A DNA stretch of 63,551 nt, the filler included, from Collodictyon triciliatum (taxonomy: Eukaryota), in NCBI GenBank assembly GCA_043381765.1. It is 22 parts of 22 records of this genome, joined end to end, with 100 filler letters (N's around TTAATTAATTAA, not from the genome) between each part and the next. Parts side by side here need not be neighbours in the genome. Positions count along the whole stretch, not along the records: positions 20,936 to 23,608 come from JBHJMP010008468.1; 21 more parts are not named here. One strand, written 5' to 3'. Below the pieces are notes generated by a model that saw only the letters and a list, made by a program, of their open reading frames with translations, had not been told where the DNA came from and searched no databases. A program made the position numbers and the translations under genes. Positions 21,231 to 21,358 of the stretch are shown piece by piece (position 1 is the first letter of the stretch; each line of letters begins with the position of its first letter).

Positions 21231-21358
21231 GGTATACCAATCGAAAGATTGGTAAACCAGGTTCGCTGGTGTCCAAGGTCTCACCACTTTTTTCACTATG
21301 GTCGCGTAGTGGTGTAGGTTGCCAGGTGAGACCCGACAGCCTTTTTTTTTTTAAGGCA
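21231..21358. ncRNA. Cluster of hairpins just downstream of the Fanzor ORF; candidate omegaRNA or element right end
   Basis: TACCAATC-GAAA-GATTGGTA (21235-21254); ACCAG/CTGGT (21256-21270); GGTCTCACC (21277-21285) pairing with GGTGAGACC (21325-21333), enclosing CACTATG/CGTAGTG; GCCTT/AAGGC at the edge. Confidence 0.6.

Follow-up and report, generated by a model that had tools for sequence, protein, structure and literature searches.

A probable relic omegaRNA scaffold at the right end of a decayed Fanzor1 element in Collodictyon triciliatum

A GC-richer island at the 3′ end of a decayed Fanzor1 gene of Collodictyon triciliatum is best explained as the relic omegaRNA scaffold of a Fanzor1 element, lying on the ORF (minus) strand and serving as the right end of the element as well. 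I give this reading a probability of about 0.8. It was found that the island is the end of a high-copy element, comprising its last ~120 nt with a sharp end of CTAG plus the target T. By sequence comparison, the predicted core module and closing stem of the island were shown to have counterparts that covary or stay paired in Fanzor1 relatives of giant viruses. The copy studied here is dead: its ORF is broken, its closing stem is broken, and its terminal loop is inverted. Since neither the closing stem nor the gene is intact, the copy is called a relic. The window, meaning the whole stretch of 63,551 nucleotides that was analysed, consists of short contigs joined by N spacers, and the island lies in the contig at 20937-23608 (G000:C8468). 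The features are as follows, in window positions.

22814..23608, minus strand: non-coding 5′ region of the element, which continues into a (CTTTT)n tract where the contig ends
21296..22813, minus strand: decayed Fanzor1 ORF with its ATG at 22813 and many stops and frameshifts (tblastn with P0001)
21316..21342, minus strand: SL1, an 11-bp family hairpin with G·U pairs, overlapping the last codons (family-majority fold)
21281..21315, minus strand: predicted core module, consisting of a 7-8-bp stem, a bulged A (21307), a short hairpin, a 5-nt A-tract, and the closing strand (viral layout)
21266..21270, minus strand: predicted 5′ arm of the closing stem, ACTAG in the family and ACCAG here, straight after TTGGAT (pairs with the element end)
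21231..21258, minus strand: subterminal hairpin with an 8-bp core (21254-21235) and its loop at 21246-21243 (family alignment)
21222..21226, minus strand: right end CTAG (CTAC here, 21226-21223) and target T (21222) (conservation boundary)
21207..21221, minus strand: predicted copy-specific guide of ~15 nt in the host flank (from the SpuFz1 guide length and the unrelated flanks)

The ORF pieces of the window copy are 46-59% identical to P0001, an intact relative of 648 aa (tblastn). P0001 is encoded on a contig of 2.6 kb and has 64% identity to a fragment from a sister copy. The window copy lacks ~413 nt at 21471, corresponding to P0001 residues 451-587 and including the RuvC-II glutamate. A fragment of a sister copy matched PpFz1 (7e-10), SpuFz1 (1e-7), and GtFz1 (8e-4) in the PDB, while a profile of 46 proteins gave E-values of 5e-58, 4e-56, and 2e-42 with Fanzor1 structures; fragment and profile matched solely the three solved Fanzor1 structures. 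RuvC motifs, here named RuvC-I to RuvC-III, and zinc-finger motifs were identified by eye. Pfam searches with the ORF pieces of the window gave nothing above the cut-off. Stops occur in every near-full-length family match among the 68 scored of 1130 candidates. Metagenome and viral contigs did not yield the DNA of P0001, and neither the fragment nor the 3′ motif of the family was found in viral contigs. A preliminary description of this DNA had placed the island ~70 nt past the end of the ORF, but that distance reaches the RD codons of RuvC-III (21427-21422), not the ORF end. The reading frame of the window copy enters the island and stops at a TAG (21298-21296), so that the last codons overlap the hairpins, and P0001 reads through the same tail. 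Copies differ at the base that creates an earlier TAG at 21343: of 113, 38 have T, 59 have C, and 14 have A. The island is thus located where a Fanzor1 omegaRNA is expected, at the 3′ end of a Fanzor1 gene. Upstream of the ORF, a GC-rich block (window 23023-23200, GC 0.50) is conserved in the family and unstructured (z about 0); it is possibly a promoter. Two contig-level runs of uncertain type have similar coverage over the coding and non-coding parts. The neighbouring contigs carry spliced host exons that look WD40-like by eye (window 19650-20600, minus strand) and a C2H2 zinc-finger ORF (window 24007-24528, plus strand; Pfam below the cut-off), both unrelated to the element.

How common is this 3′ end? 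The element belongs to a repeat family of high copy number, with 344 candidates for the 3′ end and 145 exact matches of a 15-base motif in 75 Mb. From 119 distinct 3′ ends, 114 were used, after the removal of two mis-anchored copies (L031 and L144) and three with too little sequence. Among the 114, 37 had been picked by likeness to the window copy or by loop sequence and 77 by an exact island motif; the columns of the selecting motif were excluded from the conservation figures. The proposal that the island accompanies other Fanzor copies was borne out by its alignment in 114 of them. For the tree and the linkage analysis, 84 copies were used whose loop state was clear and whose ORF covered 1 kb or more, and the family tree is star-like with end branches of ~0.095. 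In the last 1.4 kb of the 84-copy alignment, 75 polymorphisms are common, with a minor allele of 18% or more, and only six of them are in a CpG context. They show no linkage, even over distances of 11-30 nt (mean r2 0.018, near 1/N). The copies resemble very fine mosaics, which suggests heavy gene conversion or recurrent hot spots. Six copies of 1.0-1.7 kb (L097, L111, L112, L029, L174, and L182) keep both ends and have lost most of the ORF, resembling the ghost loci of SpuFz1, while L039, L047, and L052 form a subfamily with an additional common block of ~700 nt in the 5′ non-coding part.

Alignment of the 114 copies revealed the anticipated sharp conservation boundary at 21223-21222, where column identity falls from 0.75-0.84 (21226-21222) to 0.37-0.58 in the next five columns. 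The family right end consists of the 8-bp hairpin, ~12 nt, CTAG, and then the target T. The first flank base is T in 112 of 122 copies, and the second is A in 0.54 of 99 copies. Except for an A/T bias at +2 to +12, the flanks are unrelated between copies. The subterminal hairpin is a candidate both for a Helitron-type terminator and for a third stem of the scaffold, and it probably doubles as a signal for the DNA end. A few pairs of copies have similar flanks. L127 (G000:C1937) and L152 (G000:C4354) have 14 of the first 16 flank bases in common, in a motif found at those two sites only in the assembly, and are otherwise ordinary copies; L125 and L140, the second-closest pair by ORF, and likewise L010 and L083, have 10-11 flank bases in common. 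Read-through, conversion, or guide-matched insertion could produce such sharing. Guide-directed insertion as a general rule was rejected, as the sharing did not exceed column-permuted nulls but for one pair, and a Mantel test gave p = 0.22.

In the window copy, the island has a GC content of 0.47 against 0.35 for the contig, in agreement with the preliminary description, and it folds beyond shuffled controls as expected (plus strand z −6.04, 0 of 200 shuffles; minus strand z −4.15, 1 of 200). Among 19 tiled 128-nt windows of the contig, it alone lies below z −3.3. The 8-bp GAAA hairpin described previously is present at 21235-21254 and extends to 21231-21258 with one mismatch; its loop is of the GNRA type. 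The 5-bp hairpin around GTTCG is also present (21256-21270), but its exact form occurs in one of 114 copies and is thus private, and since its loop has 5 nt, it is no C-G-closed UUCG tetraloop. Similarly, the 9-bp stem exists (21277-21285 with 21325-21333) and encloses a CACTA/TAGTG hairpin, but both arms are perfect in only three of 114 copies; the variant arm behind it occurs in six of 114. Thus, the fold drawn previously from the 9-bp stem and the GTTCG hairpin is a private variant of this copy and not the fold of the family. The impression that the stems are better preserved than the ORF did not hold, since identity to the column majority is 0.893 in the stems, 0.883 in the island, and 0.924 in the ORF (84 copies).

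The family-majority fold on the ORF strand consists of SL1, the core module, and the terminal hairpin. Folding of the family majority gave z −5.0 for the ORF strand versus −3.7 for the antisense strand, and the ORF strand folds better in 91 of 114 individual copies, while the window copy, taken alone, folds better antisense. In the window copy, SL1 is disturbed by the variant that makes the 9-bp stem. Across the family, 92% of SL1 cells are paired, without covariation. Covariation was absent within the family as a whole (score 0.119 versus 0.119 shuffled; 312 of 500 shuffles as high), and RNAalifold on the 114 copies gave almost no structure on either strand. Such an outcome is expected of a star-like tree whose end branches measure ~0.095. 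Substitutions in the stems were compared with those in the ORF. Transitions that give G·U pairs on the ORF strand are raised, to roughly double the rate in the ORF (A>G, 0.095 vs 0.035, p = 0.0008; C>T, 0.091 vs 0.048, p = 0.02), while those that give A·C are at the background rate (p = 0.63 and 0.57); a threshold version of the G·U test was not significant (p = 0.16-0.20). The asymmetry favours a single-stranded molecule of the ORF strand, RNA and DNA alike, as G·T pairs are tolerated in single-stranded DNA of that strand too.

Is the structure shared with more distant relatives? Beyond the family, the proteins closest to P0001 have 40-49% identity with it, and 106 of their loci (L208-L313) were taken from viral and metagenome contigs. 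Ninety of them have the RD motif, 75 a recognisable end, and these gave 62 distinct viral ends, from which 31 were chosen for diversity as the covariation set. On the ORF strand, the viral 3′ regions combine a stem of 7 bp and a bulged A with a hairpin that varies and an A-tract of 5 nt. Two-sided changes were found in 11 of 14 pairs among the 31 sequences, with 0 of 500 shuffles as high, and the module scored 0.42 against 0.06-0.14 for slid controls; kinship of the viral sequences inflates the shuffle tests, and the slid controls offset this partly. Thus, the covariation sought by the preliminary description, which failed to appear within the family, is strong in the giant-virus homologues. 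On the ORF strand, a module descriptor, composed after inspection of both the viral and family sets, matched 50 of 62 viral ends and 38 of 112 family ends; the antisense strand gave no match in either set. It matched 0 of 960 shuffles, while looser settings gave two antisense viral matches and 9 of 960 shuffles. In the 63.5-kb window, its sole minus-strand match is at 21307, with two on the plus strand. The bulged A follows the R codon of RD by 80-117 nt in the viral loci and mostly by 117-120 nt in the family, and all three pairs of the 7-bp stem that differ between the family and the viral locus L241 are two-sided changes. A covariance model made from viral sequences alone (R1) gave 20 weak matches in the window, none of them on the island. 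In 35 other family loci, 13 of 30 weak matches of the viral model fell on the module on the ORF strand, with E-values of 0.26-9, none significant singly, and the copies are not independent. Rfam gave no match on the island and one chance match elsewhere in the window (E = 1.9). Family folding and the elements shared with the viral loci support the omegaRNA scaffold read from this DNA originally, and place it on the ORF strand. The viral set itself could seed an RNA-family model, as it comprises dozens of giant-virus Fanzor1 loci whose frames are open and whose 3′ RNA covaries strongly; this RNA has two subtypes, one with and one without an inserted hairpin. The loci are inferred to belong to the PGv-1 group.

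Fanzor1 scaffolds are reported to absorb TIR and TSD bases and to end in a stem beside the guide (Yoon et al., as described in the text of PMC10711439). A comparable closing stem is predicted here between the five bases after T(T/G)GAT and the element's own end together with target bases. The viral stem TTTAC/GTAAA has 0.96 of its cells paired in 62 ends (slid 0.23-0.63). The family stem ACTAG/CTAGT has 0.90 paired in 123 copies (slid 0.13-0.54), a figure to be read with the self-complementarity of CTAG in mind, and minimum-energy folding predicts the stem in only 41 of the 123. The register is equal in the viral and family ends, with three of five pairs swapped. Taken together, these elements suggest a course of events. 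A transcript would cover the last ~16 codons, continue beyond the end of the element, and be trimmed to a scaffold of ~120 nt and ~15 nt of host flank; the SpuFz1 guide has 14-15 nt according to the text of PMC10432273. By extension from SpuFz1 and GtFz1, the Fanzor1 of the family would bind this RNA and cleave the empty site with it. Through the closing stem (ACUAG with CUAG-U), the scaffold would come to include the new end as well as the target T, which is nearly invariant. With the target T inside the scaffold, the guide would begin at ~21221. Each insertion would then programme the nuclease against its own empty site, which would favour restoration or spread. The Fanzor1 gene and the RNA core, kin to those of Tc1/mariner TIR elements, would now be carried by an element that lacks TIRs and ends in hairpin-CTAG|T, a Helitron-like end to which the closing stem would have been adapted, the direction of the vehicle change being unrooted.

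The right end resembles a rolling-circle signal closely enough that the island might act as DNA only, with its terminator hairpin and CTAG and with no guide RNA. Helraiser, as described in the text of PMC4778049, has a 19-bp palindrome 11 nt ahead of CTAG and prefers AT-rich 3′ flanks, and the family likewise has its hairpin ~12 nt before CTAG, a target T, and an AT-rich flank. The lack of TIRs, the presence of RepHel genes in the genome, and loop inversions and palindrome-perfecting variants reminiscent of DNA template switching fit such a role, as does the G·U excess, which is highest in the terminal hairpin (0.118 vs 0.061). However, the core module and the closing stem are common to viral elements of the TIR type. 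Those elements have TA-flanked inverted ends, with a DDE_3 transposase in L211, and thus need no rolling-circle terminator. The family also has no sequence in common with the RepHel loci compared. I therefore regard a DNA-only role as unlikely. Still less probable is a small RNA of the antisense (plus) strand that ends in the T-run at 21343-21353, such as a Pol III transcript. The window copy does fold best on that strand, with GAAA and GTTCG loops and the T-run following, and this was the caveat raised in the preliminary description. However, GAAA on the plus strand is the minority, inverted state of the loop, an artefact of the window copy, and the GTTCG loop is private; the T-run represents lysine codons and usually has 6-7 nt. 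With family folding and every homology test favouring the ORF strand and no Rfam match, this reading is hardly credible.

Of 114 copies, 80 have the loop as GAAA on the ORF strand, 31, including the window copy, have it inverted, and three have neither form; in the 77 copies chosen without regard to loop sequence, GAAA is on the ORF strand in 62. A deletion in the 3′ arm was found in four of 31 inverted-loop copies and in 34 of the 80 others. Template switching at quasi-palindromes could account for the inverted loop, for its tie to an undeleted 3′ arm, and for the private 9-bp stem, so that the hairpins might be by-products without a selected function. It fails to explain why the module and closing stem match those of the viral relatives in position and register, and as a full explanation it is very unlikely. 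On the ORF tree, copies with the inverted loop do not cluster (18 changes against a shuffled mean of 18.6), and well-supported branches force two changes. A special recurrent flipping of the loop was rejected, as the 75 common polymorphisms are just as unlinked. For the same reason, one or a few inversions followed by shuffling may explain the distribution. Termination of Helraiser depends on the loop sequence (in the text of PMC4778049), and by analogy the two loop orientations may differ functionally.

A separate question from the RNA is the type of vehicle. The left end is ~A|TTTGCA before a (GTTT)n tract, outside the window contig, and full-length copies span 3.3-3.8 kb between it and the right end; R|TTTGCA was found at nine of 11 left ends, mostly preceded by A, and no TAM is readable save this A. 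In 21 long copies, a search for the last 16 nt in inverted orientation found nothing with fewer than four mismatches, and the TIRs and TA duplication of Tc1/mariner elements are absent from the family. Like Helitron1, the family has a 3′ hairpin and CTRR followed by a target T, while it lacks the 5′-TC start; the asymmetric TIRs and the insertion after TTTT or at T|T of Helitron2 (CRe type) are also lacking. The first 13 flank bases are repeated at the left end in four of 21 both-ended copies (at least 9 of 11 matches), as compared with 2.6% of mismatched pairs (permutation p = 0.002-0.004), and matching persists up to and including +13 and declines beyond it. With a stricter test, anchored on the motif, the result was one of seven (p = 0.058; one of the seven rows is mis-anchored). 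The duplications count against a plain Helitron reading. No empty sites were found among the loci gathered. A head-to-tail junction was considered for flanks starting with TTTGC and discarded, because by eye they do not continue into the left-end tract. RepHel loci exist in the genome in truncated or decayed form, and no ends common to them and the family were found in eight stretches compared. One RepHel frame (L115, G000:C6377) is open for at least 1064 codons, partly N-masked, and ends at the contig end; it is possibly an intact Helitron transposase.

The odds between a Helitron-type vehicle and an unclassified one like MCi-2 are about even. An unclassified TIR-less element with ~12-13-bp duplications, whose resemblance to Helitrons would be superficial, is a real but somewhat less than even prospect. 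The 13-bp repeats, a flank bias that stops at +12, and a left end that is not TC speak for it; moreover, the closing stem of the RNA requires CTAG anyway, and MCi-2 has 11-12-bp TSDs and no TIR (PMC3627910). However, 17 of the 21 copies have no clear ungapped duplication, the stricter test gave the single case above, and the frequent R|TTTGCA fits the proto-Helentron pattern of 5′-TT...CTAG-3′ at A|T (text of PMC4067079). Fanzor-bearing Helitron2 elements (CRe-1/2/3) also show TSDs in 10-70% of copies. A bolder scenario is that the Fanzor1 gene and RNA core moved from a mariner cut-and-paste element to a TIR-less rolling-circle-type element and that the nuclease aided integration. The second strand would be nicked ~13 nt from the CTAG|T junction, giving 13-bp duplications, and occasional carry-over or guide-matched choice of flanks would follow, as might be the case for L127 and L152. 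I consider this scenario improbable. If it were true, the family would be a second lineage, independent of the Chlamydomonas CRe-1/2/3, that ties Fanzor to non-canonical Helitron insertion, a link on which Craig (2023; text of PMC10288648) speculated.

The island most likely represents an RNA of a familiar type, and the copy that carries it is dead. GtFz1 of Guillardia theta is also a Fanzor1, with a multi-stem omegaRNA scaffold that overlaps its last ~17 codons (text of PMC10432273); its locus likewise has no clear inverted repeats, and its RNA has 150 nt in total against the ~135 predicted here (texts of PMC10432273 and PMC11423790). Unlike GtFz1, likened here by description, the family has a hairpin-CTAG|T end and a high copy number, and every copy seen is decayed. 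The nearest protein relatives after P0001 are the Tc1/mariner Fanzor1 elements of giant viruses (PGv-1 and PUl-4; PMC3627910) and the loci L208-L313, of which the latter have the RNA core module and the closing-stem register in common with the family. In contrast to their TIRs and TA duplications, the family has no TIR, an A after the target T in ~54% of copies, and other letters in the closing stem. CRe-1/2/3 and CrFNuc of the Chlamydomonas Helitron2 group are, in the texts of PMC3627910 and PMC10530073, non-autonomous elements with Fanzor1 only and intact 3′ ends like the family; some of their copies carry target duplications of 7-19 bp that begin where insertion normally takes place, and the elements have an fRNA at the 3′ end that is comparable to the island. 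According to the same texts, CRe elements differ in having asymmetric TIRs, insertion after TTTT, and introns, whereas the family has no TIR, an A|T-type site, and a CTAG end. Helraiser (Helitron1; text of PMC4778049) shares the hairpin ~11-13 nt before CTAG, the T target, and the AT-rich 3′ flank, and proto-Helentron-Pi shares the 5′-TT (texts of PMC4067079 and PMC11417382). Unlike Helitron1 and proto-Helentron, the family has no 5′-TC, some duplications, no internal RepHel, and no autonomous partner found. MCi-2 of Mucor circinelloides (PMC3627910) is also a Fanzor1 element with no TIR and a fuzzy left end; compared by description, it has an 11-12-bp AT-patterned duplication, while duplications occur in a minority of copies of the family.

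What is new is a giant-virus-type Fanzor1 scaffold apparently refitted to a TIR-less hairpin-CTAG|T end, in a family of which some copies have 13-bp duplications. No previous description of the module was found by title and abstract in mostly open-access literature, with Repbase outside the scope, and the texts of PMC10432273, PMC11423790, PMC10711439, and PMC10530073, figures and most supplements aside, do not describe it. The comparison yields a core backed by covariation and a closing stem for a large group of giant-virus Fanzor1, and it predicts the scaffold-guide boundary for the intact 648-aa relative P0001. According to the text of PMC10711439, Yoon et al. proposed scaffold re-coding as a route by which Fanzor1 spread among transposon families, and the family would be a natural case of a scaffold rewritten to suit another type of transposon end. 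A 2026 review (text of PMC13565253) asked why a copy-type Helitron carries a homing nuclease; the refit described here bears on why such an element would do so.
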